Below are positions 3,537-51,889 of a DNA stretch of 64,000 nucleotides, piece by piece. The DNA comes from Thermoleophilia bacterium (GTDB taxonomy: Bacteria > Actinomycetota > Thermoleophilia > BMS3ABIN01), in contig JACWAM010000109.1 in NCBI GenBank assembly GCA_014874265.1, positions 4,808 to 68,807 of the forward strand. Direction: 5' to 3'. The notes below the pieces were generated by a model. The model searched no databases. It had not been told where the DNA came from and saw nothing but the letters and a program-made list of their open reading frames with translations. The number at the start of each line of letters is the position of its first letter. Positions within the stretch are counted from its first letter, which is position 1. Position numbers and translations under genes: made by a program.

Positions 3537-5561
3537 CTACCGTCGTTTCACAATCAGGAAAAAATAACCAATGCCAATTATAAGCGCCGCTCCGGCAACA
3601 CCCAGCACAATCCATACCCGGCCCGAGATGGGATGGATCGTGGCGTTATCGCCGGCAAGCACCACCCCGTTCGATTTTATCGAAGCATTCAGTCGAGACC
3701 AGCCGGCATCCCGGTAAGGAAATTTCATCACTGTCAGGCCCGGTTTGAGCTGCGTCCGCTGGTCGGAGCCGCGGGGGAAATTCACTCCGCCCGCTTCTAC
3801 TACTATATCGGCGGTTACCGGATAAGAATTGCCGTTTTTGACCGTCACGTCGGCTTCGCCGCTGCCGGATCCCTGCAGCAAGGGCAGGCTGACACCGATT
3901 GATATCCGGGAAAACTCCGAATGGACGCTATTAATAATATCGCTCAAATATGCCAGACCCTGATTCGCCGATCCGGGATCGGCTCCGGGGCCGGTCCAGT
4001 AACCGCTTTCGGCGGCGAACATCTTCCGCGACAGCGATATCATCGGCATGCTGTCCGAATCGACTGCTTCGCGGTAAGCCTCAAAGAGGCTGTGGGCCGC
4101 CGTCAGGTTCTGATAGTAGGTCTGGGATACATATCCGGAAACGGTGTCAACATACTTAAACAAGGTTGCCGGCTCGGTGCTGGGACGGTATTTATTGTTC
4201 GCATCGGCAAGGGTCATGGTGTTTAGCCAGGCTGCTCCCTTGATGGCGGCATAGATCTGGTCCCGCTGCTGAGCCGAAAGCGCCGGCGCCAGCACCTCGG
4301 GAGCGACGATGACCGGGTTTGCCTGACCGCCGGCGGCATAATCATTGGCAAGGGCGGCAAAGAAAGCTTGCGGGTCAGGCTGGCTGCCGAGCAGCGCCGC
4401 CGAGGCGTCATCGGCGGCAAAGAAAGCCGTGATTCTCTCCCCGCTTAAATCGCGGAGGCGGTAGGAGACGGCGCCGGCCAGATCAGGACCGGCCTGGACC
4501 GATCCCCGGAACGAACCGGGTAACACCGTATAATTGCTGCCGGTATCGGCCAGATAGCGCAGCGAGTCCGTCGTTACCATCAGGCCGGGCGCGAAGCCGC
4601 CCTGGGGATCCTGGCCGAGACCGAGGAGATCGGATTCAACATCCCGACCGATGCGAAACTGCCCATTGCCATCCTCCCAGCCATCCTTGGCCAGTAACGG
4701 CAAATTGGCAAATGTATACGGAGTCGCAAGGATTTCGCTGTTGCCCGAAGCCGCCAGCTGCTTGAGGCTGTCCAGGCACCCGCCGGCTGCCGTTGCTTCC
4801 GGCGAGTTTGCGGCAAGGGTCCGGACCCCGCTCCCTTCCTTAAGCTGAAACCCGCGGCTCATGGCGTCAAGCTGATCCAGCAGGGAAGGCTCGATTGCAT
4901 AGGTTGTCTTAATTTGCGGGTACTTTTGTGATAAATCCCAGTTCTGCAGGATGGAATCGGGCGCCTCGGGAGAAGCCTGGCAGCGGGTGACAAGAGCGGT
5001 GTTTTCAAACTGTCCGGCCGGATTTCGCCCCGGCGGGGAGCTTACCGGCCAGACGATCACAAGATCAAGCGGAGCATGCGCGCCCGCGTCCACCACCGCC
5101 AGCCAGGCGGTGGCGCCGGCCAGCTCCCCGCCGGGGCCCATCAGGCTCACCCGCACCGGATAGCCGCCGGCACTGACGCCCAGGCTGTCAAGCGAAGCGC
5201 CGAACTGAAGGCTCTCCTTTCCGGAAGTCTTGAAATTGTTTCTAATGCTCAGCTGGGTCAGTGGCTGGCCGCCAACGGGATTAGCCGACGCCGGCGACGC
5301 CGGCGTATAGACTTTTAAAACCAGATCGCCGGAAACGGTCTGCCCTCCGGAATCAACGGTTATATTAAAAGTTGCGGTATCCCCCGGGCGATATACCAGC
5401 TTATCGGTGACAGCAGAGACAGATGCCTGGGCCGCGGCCAGGGAGGCCGGCCGATCCCAGGCGCTGAGCGCAGCAAAACCGGCCAAAAAAATGAGCGCCA
5501 TCGCCACCGGCGCGTATCGGCGCAACCGTAATTTACATGCTTGCAGAAATTTGGTTTTCAC
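3537..5561 (-). CDS. Large secreted or surface protein with a C-terminal membrane anchor, hypothetical.
   Basis: 674 aa. It has an N-terminal signal-like hydrophobic segment and a C-terminal TM (IVLGVAGAALIIGIGYFFLIVKRR). No catalytic motif was recognised. Confidence 0.4.
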   Translation of the reverse strand: MKTKFLQACKLRLRRYAPVAMALIFLAGFAALSAWDRPASLAAAQASVSAVTDKLVYRPGDTATFNITVDSGGQTVSGDLVLKVYTPASPASANPVGGQPLTQLSIRNNFKTSGKESLQFGASLDSLGVSAGGYPVRVSLMGPGGELAGATAWLAVVDAGAHAPLDLVIVWPVSSPPGRNPAGQFENTALVTRCQASPEAPDSILQNWDLSQKYPQIKTTYAIEPSLLDQLDAMSRGFQLKEGSGVRTLAANSPEATAAGGCLDSLKQLAASGNSEILATPYTFANLPLLAKDGWEDGNGQFRIGRDVESDLLGLGQDPQGGFAPGLMVTTDSLRYLADTGSNYTVLPGSFRGSVQAGPDLAGAVSYRLRDLSGERITAFFAADDASAALLGSQPDPQAFFAALANDYAAGGQANPVIVAPEVLAPALSAQQRDQIYAAIKGAAWLNTMTLADANNKYRPSTEPATLFKYVDTVSGYVSQTYYQNLTAAHSLFEAYREAVDSDSMPMISLSRKMFAAESGYWTGPGADPGSANQGLAYLSDIINSVHSEFSRISIGVSLPLLQGSGSGEADVTVKNGNSYPVTADIVVEAGGVNFPRGSDQRTQLKPGLTVMKFPYRDAGWSRLNASIKSNGVVLAGDNATIHPISGRVWIVLGVAGAALIIGIGYFFLIVKRR

Positions 5562-14084: not shown

Positions 14085-14180
14085 GGGAGGGCACGGGTCT
14101 GGTGGCCCAGCCGGTCTTCAAAACCGGTAAGTGGCGGTAACCCCGTCATTGGTAGGTTCGATTCCTACGCCTTCCCGCCA
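14085..14180 (+). tRNA. selC: tRNA-Sec (anticodon UCA).
   Basis: 8-bp acceptor stem (gggagggc/gccttccc with one G-U), anticodon loop cuUCAaa, long variable arm, T-loop ggTTCGAttcc, discriminator G plus CCA. 96 nt. Lies directly downstream of selA-selB. Confidence 0.8.
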
Positions 14181-18984: not shown

Positions 18985-20289
18985 TCAATCCATATCCTTT
19001 TTTGACATTTTGGAAGATTTATAACCATTTAACCTGAACAGTCGCCTCATTGATTCCACGTACAGATAGCCGCCCCGTTCATTTGAGGCCCTTTTTAGCT
19101 CCACCGTAGGGCCATGCAAGATCTTGTTGACGATGCCGGACGCCATCGCTTCGATCCGGTTGCGGTCATCTTCCGAGAGCTCACCGTCAAATCTGGCCAG
19201 TGTTTTGGCCAGCTCCGCTTCCTTGACATCTTCGGCCATCGCCCTCAGCGCTGTTATCGTCGGCACCACATCCAGGCTTGAGAGCCACCGGCTGAAGCTC
19301 TCCACTTCCTCCTCGATAATCTTTTCCGCCTTCTTTGCCTCTTTTTGACGAGCGGCGGCGTTTGCCTCGGACACCTCGCTCAGATCATCAATATCATAAA
19401 GAAATGCATTGTTAACCTCGTTAACACCCGGCTCGATATCACGGGGAACAGCGATGTCAATGAAGAAGATTGCCCTGTGATGACGCCGGCGAATCGCCCG
19501 CTCCACCTCATTCTTGTGCACTACGTAACGGGAAGCGCCGGTTGAGCTGATGACAATATCCGCCAGTGGCAGGTATTTGTTTAAATCATCAAACGGAATC
19601 GCGGTGCCGTTGAATTTTTCCGCCATCTGCTCTGCATGACTGAAAGTCCGGTTTCCCACAAATATGCCGGCAATGCCATGGGAGAGAAGATGGGTGGCGG
19701 TTAACTCTCCCATCTTGCCCGCCCCCAGCAGCAGCACCGTCTTGCCCTCCAGATCGCCGAATACTTTTTTGGCCATTTCGACCGCGACGGACGAAACCGA
19801 GACGGGGTTTTCGCCAATCGCCGTCTCGGTCCGCACCCGCTTGCCCGCCTCCAGCGCATGGCGGAAAAGGCGATTGAGAAGGACGCTCGTGCTTTGCTGC
19901 TTGTGGGCCCGCCGGTATGCCTCCTTGATCTGGCCCATGATCTGCGCTTCCCCGACAACCATCGAATCAAGGCTGCTGGAGACGGTGTAAAGGTGGCGCA
20001 CAGCGGCATCGCCCTCATGAAAATAAGAGCAGCGCTTGAGTTCCCCGGGGTCGACGCCACCGATGTCAGACAGCGCCGCCACCACCTCTTTTAACCCGGT
20101 TTCCGGATGTGAAGCAACCATGTACACTTCAGTCCGGTTACAGGTAGAAAGCGGCACGACCTCAAGCACCCTGGAACCACTCAGCAGCCGTTGCGAGAGC
20201 TCGGAAGCCTGCTCCCCGCCAAGTGAAACTTTTTCCCGCAGCTCCACCGGAGCTGTCTTGTGATTTATGCCAAATACCGCGAGATGCAT
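18985..20289 (-). CDS. hemA: Glutamyl-tRNA reductase.
   Basis: LSTCNRTEVY active-site region and an NADPH-binding GAGKMGE motif. 434 aa. Confidence 0.85.
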   Translation of the reverse strand: MHLAVFGINHKTAPVELREKVSLGGEQASELSQRLLSGSRVLEVVPLSTCNRTEVYMVASHPETGLKEVVAALSDIGGVDPGELKRCSYFHEGDAAVRHLYTVSSSLDSMVVGEAQIMGQIKEAYRRAHKQQSTSVLLNRLFRHALEAGKRVRTETAIGENPVSVSSVAVEMAKKVFGDLEGKTVLLLGAGKMGELTATHLLSHGIAGIFVGNRTFSHAEQMAEKFNGTAIPFDDLNKYLPLADIVISSTGASRYVVHKNEVERAIRRRHHRAIFFIDIAVPRDIEPGVNEVNNAFLYDIDDLSEVSEANAAARQKEAKKAEKIIEEEVESFSRWLSSLDVVPTITALRAMAEDVKEAELAKTLARFDGELSEDDRNRIEAMASGIVNKILHGPTVELKRASNERGGYLYVESMRRLFRLNGYKSSKMSKKDMD

Positions 20290-20897
20290 TTGTCGATCTC
20301 CGTCTGCGCCGCCAGATCGCCGCCGGCGTCAAGAGCGGCAACGAGGTCAATCGCCGCCAGATCCGTCAGGCATTGTTTTTTTCGTTCCTGATCCTCGATC
20401 CCGGCCAGCACCCGCTGGCGCGCCTTTCCCAGCAACTCCACCGCCCGGGTCCATGCCGGCGGGAATTCTTCTTCCAGCTGCAGGCGCAGCCGTTTCGCCA
20501 GAGCTGGCAGCGCGCCGCCGGTTGACACCGTAATTAACAGGTCCCCGCGCCTGATCCGGGAGGGAATGTAGAAATTGCATTGCTCAGGCTTGTCGGCGAC
20601 GTTGAGAAGCATGCGCCGGGCGTGTGCCTCCTCCTCTACAGCCCTGTTGACAGCATCGTCATCCGTGGCGGCTATGGTCAGAAAGGAGCCCTCCAGGTCG
20701 CCCCAGCGGTAGGTACGGGCAATATACTCGTACCGGCCGCGCTGCTTTTCGAAACCTGCCGCGAGCGCCGGTGAAATCACCTTCACCCTGGCGCCACAGG
20801 CAAGGAGGTTCGTGACTTTGCGCAGCGCCACCTGCCCGCCGCCGATCACCGTGCACTGGCGGCCGTCCACCTTGAGGTTGACGGGGAAGATTGCCAT
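20265..20897 (-). CDS. sirC: Precorrin-2 dehydrogenase / siroheme synthase N-terminal domain (SirC/CysG-N-like).
   Basis: VNLKVDGRQCTVIGGGQVALRKV NAD-binding N-terminus. 210 aa. Confidence 0.7.
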   Translation of the reverse strand: MAIFPVNLKVDGRQCTVIGGGQVALRKVTNLLACGARVKVISPALAAGFEKQRGRYEYIARTYRWGDLEGSFLTIAATDDDAVNRAVEEEAHARRMLLNVADKPEQCNFYIPSRIRRGDLLITVSTGGALPALAKRLRLQLEEEFPPAWTRAVELLGKARQRVLAGIEDQERKKQCLTDLAAIDLVAALDAGGDLAAQTEIDKCISRYLA

Positions 20898-21954: not shown

Positions 21955-23295
21955 TTACCGGGCCTCCTGTCCCAGTTTGAGCCGCAGTTCTTTAACAATG
22001 CGCTCAAAATCGCGCTCAAATCCCAATTTGGCCCGGTTGGTCCGTCCTCCCACCAGCAGCTGCCCGTCTTCGCCGGCCTTGATCCAGATGCGCCGCCGGG
22101 GAAGATAAAGCGCCACCATGATTGAAAGCATCATCAGCGTGCCGCCGACGTAGACCAGCGTCTTGAAAGGTTTGTGGTTCACTTCCAGAATGGATACCGG
22201 CGCGCCGGTGATTTGATCGTAATCGTAGCTCTTCTGGTAGAAGTTGGCCCCGTCGATCTCGAGGGGGTCGCCCTCTCTGATGGATTTGCGCTTGAGCGGC
22301 CGGTTATTCTCAAAAACCTGGATGTCACTGATAAAGGAAGAAGGCTGCAGATCAAAAACCTGCGTGATCTGGCTGATGTCGCCGCCGTCCTCACGCTGCA
22401 CCGTCTTCCCGTCGGCAAGCTGTTTGACCGGAACGATGCTGCCGTTCTTCAGCAGCGCTTTGCCTTCATATTCCATCTTAAACTGATAGTTGATCACCTG
22501 CAACGAAGTGTTCGGCACCGCCACCATCTGGCCATCTGGCACCGCCAGCGATTCGTCATAACCAAGCTGGCTGCTTAAGAGCGCTCCCGCGGCGATGAAG
22601 ATGAAGCTAACATGAAAAAACAGCGAAGCGAGCGGCGCAAAACGGCCTCTCTCGGCCAGCACCGATCCGGTCTTTCCCTGGTACAGCCGGTAATGATGAT
22701 CGCGGATGACCTGGCGCGCCGCATCCATCCCCGGCTCACCCGCCCCCGGAAACGCCGCCGCTTGCGGCTGGTTGGCAACAAATATGTCCTTGACATCAAC
22801 CTTTTGCCGGAAAGTGTGCCTGAGTGTCGCGGGCAAGCGGTTGGAGATGCAGAGAATCAGGCTGAGCACCAGCGTAAACAGCAGCGCCAGAAACCATCTT
22901 GACTGGTAGACATTAAACAGGCCGAGGCTGTTATAAAAATGATAAAGCGGACTTTTGATGATATCGGAGGTGAGGACGTCGTCCCCCTGGGGAAGGATCG
23001 TGCCGATGACCGAGACGATCGCGACCACAAACAGAAGCGTCACGGCCAGCTTCATCGAGATTAAAGTGTGAAAGACACGCTTTCCGGAAGCCAAGAGCAC
23101 CGCCAGCACGACGCCGATGTCCAGCACCGCCAGCAGCCAGTGCAGCCAGCTCAGATCGTGGACGCCGTTATCACGGTAATAGAAGACCGACAGATAGACG
23201 TCGAGAGCAAACAGCGAAAAAGCGACAATCGCCAAGAACATGACATCAGACGCCTTCCTTTCGATAGAAGGCTTGTTATTTGCCGCATGTGCCAT
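21955..23295 (-). CDS. resB: Cytochrome c biogenesis protein ResB/Ccs1.
   Basis: 446 aa. N-terminal TM helices, a large extracytoplasmic domain and a C-terminal TM. It is paired with ccsA. Confidence 0.7.
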   Translation of the reverse strand: MAHAANNKPSIERKASDVMFLAIVAFSLFALDVYLSVFYYRDNGVHDLSWLHWLLAVLDIGVVLAVLLASGKRVFHTLISMKLAVTLLFVVAIVSVIGTILPQGDDVLTSDIIKSPLYHFYNSLGLFNVYQSRWFLALLFTLVLSLILCISNRLPATLRHTFRQKVDVKDIFVANQPQAAAFPGAGEPGMDAARQVIRDHHYRLYQGKTGSVLAERGRFAPLASLFFHVSFIFIAAGALLSSQLGYDESLAVPDGQMVAVPNTSLQVINYQFKMEYEGKALLKNGSIVPVKQLADGKTVQREDGGDISQITQVFDLQPSSFISDIQVFENNRPLKRKSIREGDPLEIDGANFYQKSYDYDQITGAPVSILEVNHKPFKTLVYVGGTLMMLSIMVALYLPRRRIWIKAGEDGQLLVGGRTNRAKLGFERDFERIVKELRLKLGQEAR

Positions 23296-23600
23296 TGTTT
23301 CCGTTTCTGTTTAAACTCAAAATTATCGCCAAACGCGCAGGCGAAAGAAAAGTAAAAACACTTTTGCGCTTCGCTTATTCCAGCGGCGCATCCTGCCGGG
23401 ATTTTCGCTCGGTTGGTGTCGTTCTTCTTGCGAAGGCGCCCCCGATAATTATGCACGACTTCCGGCGGCGGGTCCAAACGGTCCGTCAAGAGAAAAGCGT
23501 TGTACCAGCTGAGAGCAGGCCGCGAGCGGCTTCGGCGCGATCCCGCCAGGCAGCTCAAGGAATTATAATGTTGATTATCCCAGGTAAGCTATGCGTCTGT

Positions 23601-23634
23601 AAAAAATGAGAAGAGGCACCTGACAGATGCCTCT
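23601..23634 (-). terminator. Rho-independent terminator on the minus strand, inside the heme-cluster gap.
   Basis: On the minus strand, AGAGGCA-9 nt loop-TGCCTCT is followed by UUUUUU (the plus-strand A-run is at 23601-06). Confidence 0.55.
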
Positions 23635-23677
23635 CTCAACGTTCTCTTCTACCAACCAGCCCAGCTTGGGTGGTTTT

Positions 23678-23705
23678 AAAGATTGTGAACATGATCACAA
23701 TCTTT
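23678..23705. promoter_or_regulatory. Perfect 10-bp-arm palindrome matching the Rex (or CRP/FNR-type) operator TTGTGA-N5/6-TCACAA.
   Basis: The palindrome is aaagaTTGTGAacatgaTCACAAtcttt. The core TTGTGAACATGATCACAA (23683..23700) matches 17 of 18 positions of the Firmicute Rex consensus TTGTGAAnnnnTTCACAA. Confidence 0.5.
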
Positions 23706-23933
23706 GCGGCACCCTTCCCATATTCATGCCCCGATTGATGATGGAGACGCATCTCAACACAAGACCCATCGCTTTCGCGACATTGCTTACGGGAGCGGCC
23801 CGTCAAAGGACCGTTTAATCAAAGTGCGCCTTCAACCTTCCCGTTTATGACGCTGCCAAAAAATTCCGCCTCCGTGACAACTTCCGCTACCGGAGCCCGC
23901 TTCATACCGCAGCTAATACCACCCAGGGGTATT

Positions 23934-23962
23934 ACCATAAGCTTTCGGCGACGGTTTGTCAA
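23934..23962 (-). promoter_or_regulatory. Sigma-70-like promoter on the minus strand (TTGACA-17-TATGGT), firing into the non-coding gap.
   Basis: Minus strand reads TTGACA (plus 23957-62), a 17-nt spacer, then TATGGT (plus 23934-39). It lies about 100 nt downstream of the ahbA stop. Confidence 0.4.
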
Positions 23963-24065
23963 TAATTTTTAACCCGTAAAAAGAGGAATTATTCAGGGCC
24001 CGAGCGGCTTTTCCGGCAGATTCCCAATTTACCGGAGCCCGGCCCAGCGATTCTGCCGGGCCAGC

Positions 24066-24548
24066 CTATTCGATAAAGTACTTCATGCTTATTTTCTTGA
24101 ACTCGCGGCTGCTGTACAGCAGCGAATAATTTTCGATGCCGGTCTTCCTTGCCAAATCAGCGGCCACTTTCTCGCATTCCTCCGGGCTGCCGCCATGGAT
24201 CATGGCAAACACATTAAAATCCCACTGTTCCGCCCGGGTCCGTTCATAGCAATGGCTCACTTCGGGAGCAGCCGCCAGAATGCGGCCAACCTCTTCGGAA
24301 CGGCCCTCCGGAACATCCCAGGCGCTCATGGCGTTGGCCGTGTAACCGAGGCGCTGGTGGCGCACCATGGCGCCGAAACGGCGGATTGTGCCCTCCTGCT
24401 TCCAGCGATCCACGCGCGAGATAACTTCTTCCGGGCTCATCCCTACCTGGGCGGCAATATCGACAAACGGCCGTGGCGTCAAGGGAATGCTCTCCTGGAG
24501 GAGTCGCACCAACTTTCTCTCGCGATCATTAAAAACCTTTGAGTTCAA
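24066..24548 (-). CDS. ahbA: AsnC/Lrp-like siroheme decarboxylase subunit (AhbA/AhbB family, NirD/L-like).
   Basis: 160 aa. HTH plus a ligand-binding domain. It sits beside a second paralog and two radical SAM genes in a siroheme context. Confidence 0.65.
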   Translation of the reverse strand: MNSKVFNDRERKLVRLLQESIPLTPRPFVDIAAQVGMSPEEVISRVDRWKQEGTIRRFGAMVRHQRLGYTANAMSAWDVPEGRSEEVGRILAAAPEVSHCYERTRAEQWDFNVFAMIHGGSPEECEKVAADLARKTGIENYSLLYSSREFKKISMKYFIE

Positions 24549-51669: not shown

Positions 51670-51744
51670 CTGGCTGGGGCGGGAGGATTCGAACCTCCGA
51701 ATCACGGGACCAAAACCCGTTGCCTTACCACTTGGCTACGCCCC
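51670..51744 (-). tRNA. tRNA-Gln (anticodon UUG).
   Basis: The reverse complement reads UGGGGCGUAGCCAAGUGGUAAGGCAACGGGUUUUGGUCCCGUGAUUCGGAGGUUCGAAUCCUCCCGCCCCAGCCA. It has a U1-A72 pair and the T-loop GGTTCGAAT, and closely matches E. coli tRNA-Gln. Confidence 0.8.
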
Positions 51745-51889
51745 ATGGGCAGCCAGCGAAGGCCGAAAGAGTATATCACAAAGCAGATTCTGGATGCATG
51801 ATCTGGACGCTGGATCAGAAAAGAAAAGGCGGCCGGCCAACCGTACCGGGGTTATAAATCAGGCCTGCGGATGCACCCGCGGAAAAACG

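Follow-up and report, generated by a model that had tools for sequence, protein, structure and literature searches.

The question raised by the window, a 64,000-nt stretch of a Thermoleophilia bacterium contig (JACWAM010000109.1), is what occupies the 770-bp gap (23296 to 24065) that lies between ahbA and resB and splits a minus-strand cluster of alternative-heme genes. An earlier note, made from the sequence of the window, had read this gap as an independent small RNA or a long regulatory leader. Comparison with related genomes indicates that the gap most likely represents the remains of the first cistron of an ancestral operon for multiheme cytochromes, cytochrome c maturation and heme synthesis, the coding sequence of which was deleted in place. 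Specifically, the window keeps, in collinear order, the promoter, the first ~90 nt of the leader, a distal leader hairpin and the element that followed the first gene (here called cyt1), and it has lost the ribosome-binding site (RBS), the segment complementary to the Shine-Dalgarno sequence (anti-SD), cyt1 and the four genes after cyt1. We think it probable that this messenger shell without a coding sequence now serves, if it has any role, as a promoter/attenuator module or as an orphan RNA.

The ancestral operon in related genomes

An exact-protein look-up with ResB gave no match, and a ResB-based scan of one genome per species gave three metagenome-assembled genomes labelled Actinomycetota, Actinomycetes and Thermoleophilia (L001, L002 and L003). 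The earlier note had named conservation of the gap in a close relative as a test of its reading, and the gap is indeed present in L001 (ResB 96% identity), where it is kept whole at ~88-93% identity. L002 (ResB 71%) and L003 (ResB 45%) have no gap before resB. In these two genomes resB is preceded by cyt1, which codes for a Paired_CXXCH multiheme cytochrome, followed by a hypothetical gene (hyp), an MtrC/MtrF-like cytochrome gene (cyt2), a TPR gene and an NHL propeller gene. The operon in the relatives thus reads promoter, ~290-nt leader, cyt1, 3' element, hyp, cyt2, TPR, NHL, resB, ccsA, sirC, hemA. Upstream of cyt1 in L002 and L003 are found the promoter of the window, a GGGU.GUAU..GCGGGCUC..GCGGA block and a UUGUGA-N6-UCACAA hairpin.

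We collected cyt1 homologues together with their contigs, and the 11 distinct loci left after removal of duplicates define the leader family. Every cyt1 orthologue in the cyt-hyp-cyt-TPR-NHL context has a gap of 400-530 nt upstream, and each of these gaps contains TTGACA-17-TAnnCT at a fixed distance from a GGGUAG motif, followed by a leader of 280-300 nt up to a GAAAGGAGGUG RBS. Two cytochrome homologues that occur in other contexts (P0026 and P0029, 43% and 39% identity) have no leader, which ties the leader to this operon. In four loci (L128, L136, L138 and L142) the upstream genes are ahbA, an open reading frame (ORF) of 74-83 aa and a PMT_2 glycosyltransferase gene, which indicates that the ancestral order was ahbA ... 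leader-cyt1 ... resB. The gap in the window sits exactly at the expected place of the leader-cyt1 block. No homologue or relic of cyt1, hyp, cyt2, TPR, NHL or PMT_2 was found in the 64-kb window, and blastn detected no homology of 23296-23600 to any family locus. A metagenome search with the pattern GCGGRCTC..GCGGA yielded, among the matches listed, a sole true match, L013, which is a near-copy of L003; the other matches listed were mostly GC-rich coding repeats.

Neither Rfam, searched with the 11 canonical loci, nor a literature search for a described equivalent of the cyt1 leader gave a match. On these comparisons we take the cyt1 leader to be a previously undescribed family that is conserved in at least 11 distinct loci of uncultured Actinomycetota. 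By kind, it is a cis-regulatory leader that sequesters the Shine-Dalgarno (SD) sequence, combined with an intercistronic hairpin and an interaction of the 5' with the 3' untranslated region (UTR), all of which are known kinds.

Conserved features retained in the gap

The features of the window that bear on this origin are as follows, in the direction of transcription.

23962..23934, minus strand: sigma-70-type promoter TTGACA-17-TATGGT, with 10/12 consensus matches in a consensus scan
23601..23927, minus strand: predicted non-coding RNA of ~325 nt, its start placed from the -10 box and its end in the U-run
23914..23928, minus strand: 5' strand of the closing helix, CCC plus UGGGUGGUAUUA, homologous to family CCCAGGGUAGUAUGC
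23865..23900, minus strand: conserved 5' block GCGGGCUC..AGCGGA..CGG..GCGGA, with 25/35 nt as in the family consensus
23678..23705, minus strand: distal hairpin AAAGAUUGUGA-UCAUGU-UCACAAUCUUU of 11 bp, homologous to the family hairpin before the cyt1 RBS
23660..23678, minus strand: 3' strand of the closing helix, UAAAACCACCCA..GGG
23639..23673, minus strand: relic of the cyt1 stop region and conserved linker CUGGGCUGGUUGGUAGAAGAGAA, for which the family counterpart is CCGGGCCGGUUGGUAGAAGGUAGAA
23601..23638, minus strand: terminator-like hairpin GAGAGAGGCAUCU/AGGUGCCUCUUCUC followed by U6

The post-cyt1 element gave the clearest match. When the gap was compared with the family loci by blastn, 23670-23609 matched the sequence directly after the cyt1 stop in every locus (best E 8e-7), and a hidden Markov model (HMM) of the post-cyt1 element built from the family alone had this same interval as its single match in the window (nhmmer E 5.8e-9). 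The family reads ...CUGCCC UAA nCCGGGCCGGUUGGUAGAAGGUAGAA..GGGAGAGGC-loop-GCCUCUCCC after cyt1 and the window counterpart reads CCACCC AAG CUGGGCUGGUUGGUAGAAGAGAA..GAGAGAGGCA-loop-UGCCUCUUCUC, such that the window contains both parts of the element, the CCGGGCCGGUUGGUAGAAGGUAGAA stretch and then the GGGAGAGGC-loop-GCCUCUCCC type of hairpin. CCACCC corresponds to a relic of the last two cyt1 codons, CUGCCC. The hairpin itself is 98.5% paired with four compensatory pairs, and it is followed by no U-run in the family, by U6 in the window and by UUUCUA in L001. Given this homology, the 'terminator' of the window is the former post-cyt1 hairpin. The end of the leader hairpin (23678) and the start of CCACCC (23673) nearly adjoin, and we read this junction as the point at which the RBS and nearly all of the cyt1 coding sequence were deleted in place.

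The second line of evidence is a helix that joins the two ends of the unit. The family leader opens with ~20 nt complementary to the end of cyt1 (its last codons and the stop region), and the six core pairs of GGGUAG/CUGCCC hold in 12/12 sequences, with L128 having a wobble-compatible synonymous change. As the coding sequence is gone from the window, this 5'-3' pairing would there close a small RNA. The window helix comprises 12 positions with one A.A mismatch, plus CCC:GGG. Relative to the family, pair 13:40 went from A-U to G-C and pair 12:41 from U.G to U-A in the window lineage, and pairs 18:35 and 19:34 were switched on both sides with pairing kept; between the window and L001 one U-A pair became U.G, again with pairing kept. 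The closing helix, the distal hairpin and the terminator are all present in the predicted folds of both the window and L001.

The leader portion of the unit is more diverged. The family arrangement of TTGACA-17-TAnnnT at a fixed distance upstream of GGGU(A/G)GUAU is found at 23962..23934, and GGGUGGUAU of the window starts 11 nt after the -10 box, as it does in all members. The family consensus of the 5' block is GGGUAGUAUGCGUUGCAG ... GCGGGCUC..AGYGGACACUCGWGCGGAAGCGGAU. The two best window matches of the family HMM in nhmmer (128 kb search space) are 23964-23876 and 23718-23679, which are collinear and on the gene strand. The second of these matches (E 1.7-2.3) covers the distal hairpin, which also matches L002 by blastn (E 0.001) and is of the UUGUGA-N6-UCACAA type found ~230-250 nt from the leader start in the family. 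A covariance model of the 5' domain (R1) aligns a GCUGC/GCAGC helix of the window to helix A of the family, with the inner domain going from 103 nt to 32 nt. Both the anti-SD ACCUCCaUUUgGCC and its SD partner are missing from the window and from L001, and no Paired_CXXCH cytochrome gene lies directly downstream. Overall the homology of the unit as a whole appears well supported, with the 5' part weaker than the 3' part and with the 3' block and the matching position in addition. The window copy is best described as a divergent, truncated family member that lacks the SD-masking helix and the downstream cytochrome gene.

Structure of the family leader

RNAalifold and pair counts applied to the family leader gave 96.8% of cells paired, as compared to 34-53% when the 3' partners were slid, and a covariation score above that of all 500 shuffles. 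The best-supported element is a predicted long-range helix of 12-13 bp in which the anti-SD ACCUCCaUUUgGCC pairs with the cyt1 SD region GGCgAAAGGAGGU. Over its 12 pairs 98.6% of cells are paired, one pair is fully compensatory (C-G in eight members, U-A in three), six pairs have one-sided changes that always produce a wobble preserving the pairing, and the helix occurs in the minimum-free-energy fold of 9/11 members. The distal hairpin has two compensatory core pairs and a lower stem that varies in sequence among members with pairing kept. Helices A (GUUGCAGU/ACUGCAAC) and B (GCGG/CCGC) close the 5' domain and are invariant across the family; they are compatible with structure without being evidence for it. 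Helix B is extended in L003 alone, by an A-U pair at a place where the others have G-C. Two alternative partners, the 5' GCGUUG and a downstream GCGUGGU, are available to the segment ACGACGC, which hints at alternative conformations. A canonical leader has no excess folding energy (z = -0.35), a value that would fit a switching RNA and proves nothing.

Two other candidate features of the leader were rejected. An upstream ORF from the AUG in GUAGUAUGCG runs into different frames in different members owing to indels and so is non-coding, and a two-tier, possibly heme-binding G-quadruplex formed by four GCGG tracts was dropped since L128, L140 and L146 have A or U in place of the second G in tracts 2 and 3.

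Promoter, predicted RNA and terminator-like hairpin

The earlier note had pointed to the TTGACA-17-TATGGT promoter and to a hairpin with U6 about 300 nt downstream, and both are borne out: the promoter was recovered by the consensus scan, the hairpin lies at 23638..23601, and both are kept in L001. The region has four promoter-like sites versus 1.3 expected. Both hexamers of this promoter are intact in the window and L001, genomes that are ~10% apart at neutral sites. The predicted RNA folds with a minimum free energy of -128 kcal/mol (z = -3.7), which none of 100 dinucleotide shuffles equalled. The terminator-like stem (23635..23611) has 11 pairs, a 3-nt loop and the tail CUCAUUUUUU (CTCATTTTTT); judged by its letters, this is the layout of an intrinsic terminator, a GC-rich stem-loop and then a U-run. 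The corresponding tail in L001, CUCAUUUCUA, is weaker (UUUCUA instead of U6).

We also ran the covariance-model scan that the earlier note had called for, using the 4227 families of Rfam 15 at the gathering score and at E <= 10. At the gathering score the whole 64-kb window gave nothing except two tRNAs, with nothing in the gap, and at E <= 10 the gap gave noise from miRNA and snoRNA models (12-15 bits as compared to cut-offs of 38-104). No Rfam family accounts for the gap. RNase P, the rejection of which by the earlier note was correct as no match appeared at either threshold, is excluded by these searches along with 6S, tmRNA and known riboswitches.

Proposed course of transcription

In the mechanism that we propose, transcription from TTGACA-17-TATGGT would start near 23927 and give a ~325-nt RNA, the 5' end of which would pair with the relic of the cyt1 stop region to form the closing helix. 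The former post-cyt1 hairpin, with its acquired U6, would then terminate a large share of the transcripts. The remaining read-through would run toward resB as it would have in the ancestral operon, where the same promoter stood five genes ahead of resB-ccsA-sirC-hemA. The ancestral job of the leader would have been to gate cyt1 translation in response to a signal, a job that cannot operate in the window. The unit would now be a promoter plus attenuator before resB-ccsA-sirC-hemA, with read-through adding to the output of a candidate promoter of resB's own; alternatively, it may persist as an orphan structured RNA. In this light both halves of the earlier reading hold in part. The unit is homologous to a leader conserved in at least 11 loci, and the terminator-like hairpin at its end gives it the layout of a free-standing RNA gene; however, the gene that the leader served is gone, and so is the anti-SD:SD helix, the portion of the leader for which a regulatory logic is known.

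Present selection and alternative explanations

A reading that we take seriously, though as the less likely one, is that the unit is pure debris, i.e., a promoter, a leader stump and a hairpin left by the deletion that are functionless and decaying and whose transcript is noise. Divergence between the window and L001, which was judged against four-fold degenerate sites of nine flanking genes (0.06-0.135), bears on this directly.

Leader 5' block: 0.071
Middle of the RNA (~130 nt): 0.136
Hairpin region: 0.091
Post-cyt1 element and terminator: 0.047, the lowest inside the unit
150 nt downstream of the terminator: 0.132
Last 154 nt before resB: 0.039, as compared to ~10% at four-fold sites

Only for the last 154 nt before resB does the value clearly fall short of the neutral rate. 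In the middle 130 nt and in the 150 nt past the terminator divergence is as high as at four-fold sites, so much of the island may drift, and the low values for the 5' block and the terminator region come from too few sites for significance. These values, and a series of further points, weigh against the origin and function that we propose or in favour of debris. Several positions that are invariant in the family are lost, including GGACACUCG, along with the anti-SD/SD pair. The 5' block scores weakly in nhmmer (E 0.024 with the promoter, E 0.73 without it), and with the R1 covariance model the window copy ranks second at a non-significant 9.9 bits (E 0.28) with no separation from background. 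For the closing helix, the window and L001 cannot be taken as independent, so that their compensatory changes amount to those of a single lineage; part of the 3' strand, columns 34-38, may lack positional homology to cyt1 codons; and in no more than 8/11 family members does the stop region rank among the best partners of the 5' end. Terminator strength is not conserved, since L001 has UUUCUA for U6. A candidate antiterminator (23752-23743 : 23636-23627), in which 9/10 positions pair in the window, was rejected as three substitutions break its pairing in L001. Finally, a conserved candidate promoter belongs to resB itself. Decay of the unit is suggested by its neutral-looking middle, by the loss of invariant bases and by the broken antiterminator. 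Set against debris are the promoter hexamers, which are intact in two genomes ~10% apart at neutral sites; the closing helix, in which there are compensatory changes and, from the window to L001, one change that preserves pairing; the unusually stable fold of the window RNA (z -3.7, as compared to -0.35 for a canonical leader); and the terminator region, which is the least diverged part of the unit. The hexamers, the helix and the fold together argue for some constraint on the unit.

A more specific proposal, which we regard as unlikely, is that the leader family is a riboswitch-like sensor of heme, iron, redox or a second-messenger signal that couples translation of cytochromes for extracellular electron transfer to the maturation/heme operon, and that the gene-less copy survives by still binding its effector, either as a trans-acting decoy or as an attenuator of resB-hemA. 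The decoy form, an orphan RNA that still binds and titrates the protein or ligand of the ancestral leader, is improbable to much the same degree. The free-standing layout with promoter, 5'/3' closing helix and terminator would suit it, as would retention of the most conserved single-stranded family motifs (the GCGG..GCGGA repeats and GGUUGGUAGAAG) and a GGUAG-type motif that the post-cyt1 element shares with the 5' end and the 3' domain of the leader. However, in the window there is neither a second leader nor a target operon, GGTAG is not enriched beyond the conserved sites, and several family-invariant positions are lost.

The attenuator form, in which the unit is a riboswitch-type attenuator of resB-ccsA-sirC-hemA that has swapped its translational platform (anti-SD:SD) for a terminator, seems quite improbable. 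It would account for one 5' block with two 3' ends, SD masking in the relatives and a terminator in the window; the downstream genes make heme and mature cytochromes c, and GEMM riboswitches of multiheme cytochrome genes in Geobacter provide a precedent (PMC1950547). However, the terminator is the old post-cyt1 hairpin and so is no new platform, no antiterminator is conserved between the window and L001, and ~300 nt with a second promoter-like site separate the terminator from resB. The 5' domain in addition is almost without covariation (helices A and B never vary) and has invariant bases changed in the window.

Control at the DNA level is no better placed, and we consider it a poor candidate. 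Under this explanation TGTGA-N6-TCACA, to which the distal hairpin corresponds exactly at 23684-23699, is an operator of the CRP/FNR family, and the GCGGA repeats are regulator sites for the heme genes. Most family hairpins contain similar half-sites, as does the region upstream of an unrelated cytochrome gene in L143, and the GCGG-type repeats are ~12 nt apart. However, the hairpins of L128, L136 and L142 keep their position and pairing with other sequence (GGCCG/CGGCC, GGACCG/CGGUUCC), and the lower stem covaries across the family. The location is unsuited to either promoter, being ~230 nt downstream of the conserved one and ~125 nt upstream of the transcription start expected for the sole promoter-like site nearby, and the pattern is not enriched in the window, as 23/100 shuffles give at least two matches.

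That the gap encodes one or more small proteins is hardly credible: mechanical ORFs of 47, 56, 63, 109 and 135 aa do exist, but they have no Pfam match, a frame that is broken by a stop in the window and altered by an indel in L001 shows mostly non-synonymous differences, and the family AUG in GUAGUAUGCG opens differing frames through indels.

The earlier note had stated that the gap contains no ORF of 60 aa or more, which does not hold in the literal sense, as mechanical ORFs of 63 aa (plus strand, 23627..23818), 109 aa (plus strand, 23280..23609) and 135 aa (minus strand, 23151..23558, entering resB out of frame) overlap it. The minus-strand ORFs of 47 and 56 aa are one frame split by a stop codon in the window; in L001 they are fused, with an end that differs after a 1-nt indel and with amino acid differences that are almost all non-synonymous. 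Because no gap ORF matches Pfam, the frame is broken and the differences are mostly non-synonymous, the 770-bp gap is non-coding in substance.

Comparison with known systems

The family resembles SD-sequestering leaders and translational riboswitch platforms in that ACCUCCaUUUgGCC is predicted to pair with the RBS over 12-13 bp beside a conserved 5' domain. It differs from those in Rfam in that it matches none of the 4227 families and has a 5' domain without covariation, and the window copy has lost both strands of the masking helix. Intercistronic stem-loops and partial terminators follow the first, most highly expressed gene of an operon, and the covarying GC-rich hairpin directly after cyt1, before the rest of the operon, is similarly placed. 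In contrast to these, an invariant 25-nt sequence precedes the hairpin and a U-tract is found just in the window, where the preceding gene is gone.

Long-range pairing of the 5' and 3' UTRs of one messenger is described for icaR of Staphylococcus aureus (PMC3868564) and, over 14 bp, for hbs of Bacillus subtilis (PMC5737220). The family is alike in that GGGUAGUAUGC, at its very 5' end, is complementary to the final codons and the stop region of its own cistron, with a 6-bp core in 12/12 sequences. It is unlike icaR in that the predicted pairing does not involve the SD, and unlike both in that the pairing is predicted from sequence, with the stop region the best-ranked partner in just 8/11 family members, and in that the coding sequence between the strands is gone from the window, where the pairing would close a small RNA.

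Leader-derived small RNAs that act apart from their original gene are exemplified by EutX/Rli55, for which the ligand is adenosylcobalamin and the target an ANTAR regulator (PMC5821096). As with these, a cis-regulatory leader in the window ends at a terminator-like hairpin and would form a discrete RNA unit. However, EutX and Rli55 arise by premature termination upstream of an intact gene and have an established ligand and protein target, whereas the window unit would have arisen by deletion of the downstream coding sequence. GEMM-I riboswitches, which respond to cyclic dinucleotides, also stand upstream of multiheme cytochrome genes in Geobacter (PMC1950547). The cyt1 leader is likewise a structured leader upstream of multiheme c-type cytochromes linked to extracellular electron transfer, but it has no sequence or structure match to GEMM-I in Rfam, belongs to another phylum and is ~3 times longer.

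What is new is a set of conserved RNA elements in uncultured Actinomycetota that comprises an RBS-masking leader of ~290 nt, a 3' element of invariant sequence that is joined to a covarying hairpin, and a probable pairing of the 5' end with the 3' end. Behind these elements lie genes for multiheme cytochromes, for the maturation of cytochromes c and for heme synthesis via siroheme, processes the regulation of which is, to our knowledge, essentially undescribed in Gram-positive lineages. The window would represent a rare evolutionary intermediate in which the coding part has been excised and the promoter and both untranslated ends are joined and still pair, and such excision would be one concrete route from a messenger to a small RNA gene or an attenuator. 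Should the sensor proposal be true, the locus would be an example from nature of an mRNA of which only the two regulatory ends are left. For annotation, the deletion would account for the 'split' alternative-heme cluster, and the locus warns that a strong promoter and a terminator alone do not indicate a classical small RNA.

Gene neighbourhood and additional features

By Pfam, the genes upstream of the gap are a cobA/hemD fusion, two radical-SAM/SPASM enzyme genes, ahbB and ahbA (24066..24548), all on the minus strand, of which ahbB and ahbA code for two NirDL-like siroheme decarboxylase subunits. Downstream are resB (21955..23295), ccsA, sirC and hemA, genes of heme synthesis and cytochrome c maturation. 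The frames of sirC (20265..20897) and hemA (18985..20289) overlap by 25 nt, at 20265-20289, and ccsA and resB are spaced by 2 nt, which would fit tight coupling of the operon downstream of the gap. The remaining features of the gap are as follows.

23963..24065, minus strand: ahbA 3' flank with an imperfect inverted repeat (24066-24049 / 24023-24006) and GGGCCCTGAATAATTCC; its divergence from L001, 0.147, looks neutral
23852..23913, minus strand: local helix GCUGC (23913-23909) / GCAGC (23856-23852), which encloses the 5' block
23720..23851, minus strand: middle of the RNA, lineage-specific and without detectable homology to the family leader, divergence 0.136
23450..23600, minus strand: spacer without homology to the family loci and without excess structure, its divergence (0.132) being neutral-like
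23296..23476, minus strand: resB-proximal region with the candidate promoter TGGACC-17-CATAAT (23476..23448), conserved in L001

The interval 23296-23600 shows no excess folding (z = +0.55). TGGACC-17-CATAAT and the last 154 nt are probably the promoter and 5' UTR of resB itself. A 17-nt direct repeat that flanks the unit (23516-32 / 23994-24010) was set aside as it is at chance level, being equalled in 14/100 shuffles.

The two copies of a 12-nt repeat that the earlier note had reported in the gap were found as an exact direct repeat, TACCGGAGCCCG, at 23888-23899 and 24030-24041. One copy is within the family-conserved GCGGGCUC motif and the other is within the hairpin after the ahbA stop; in L001 just 8 nt of the repeat are common to both sites.

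Within the family, the invariant 25-nt CCGGGCCGGUUGGUAGAAGGUAGAA between the cyt1 stop and the hairpin contains UAG-N4-UAG (23642-23664 in the window, 3338-3365 in L124). The GGUAG-type motif common to the post-cyt1 element and to the 5' end and 3' domain of the leader may be a protein-binding repeat. A Coriobacteriia locus with the gene order cytochrome-cytochrome-NarJ-molybdopterin oxidoreductase and without the leader (L143, ~2350-2370; also L144 and L145) has TTGTGACCCGATTCACG ~150 nt upstream of the cytochrome gene, beside a divergent gene for an ArsR-type regulator, and these respiratory operons may have a CRP/FNR-like site in common.

Two observations concern the region upstream of the leader. 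The conserved ORF of 74-83 aa (L128 297-548, L136 347-571, L138 344-568, L142 369-596) lies between ahbA and PMT_2, belongs to no Pfam family and is missing from the window. A palindrome, AGGGGAATTCCCTGA, occurs once per locus 27-75 nt upstream of the leader -35 box (L124 2094-2108, L128 2137-2151, L132 2101-2115, L138 2129-2143, L139 2103-2117, L140 2096-2110, L142 2137-2151). At its position the window has GGGCCCTGAATAATTCC (~23985-24000) and L001 has TTCAGGGCCCGCGCGGGTCCTGAA (4263-4288), the latter flagged as terminator-like by a scan. The palindrome may serve as an operator or, alternatively, terminate the gene upstream.

Elsewhere in the window there is an ordinary tRNA gene at 51674-51745 on the minus strand and a tRNA-Sec gene at 14085-14176 on the plus strand (70.7 bits); the source organism uses selenocysteine.

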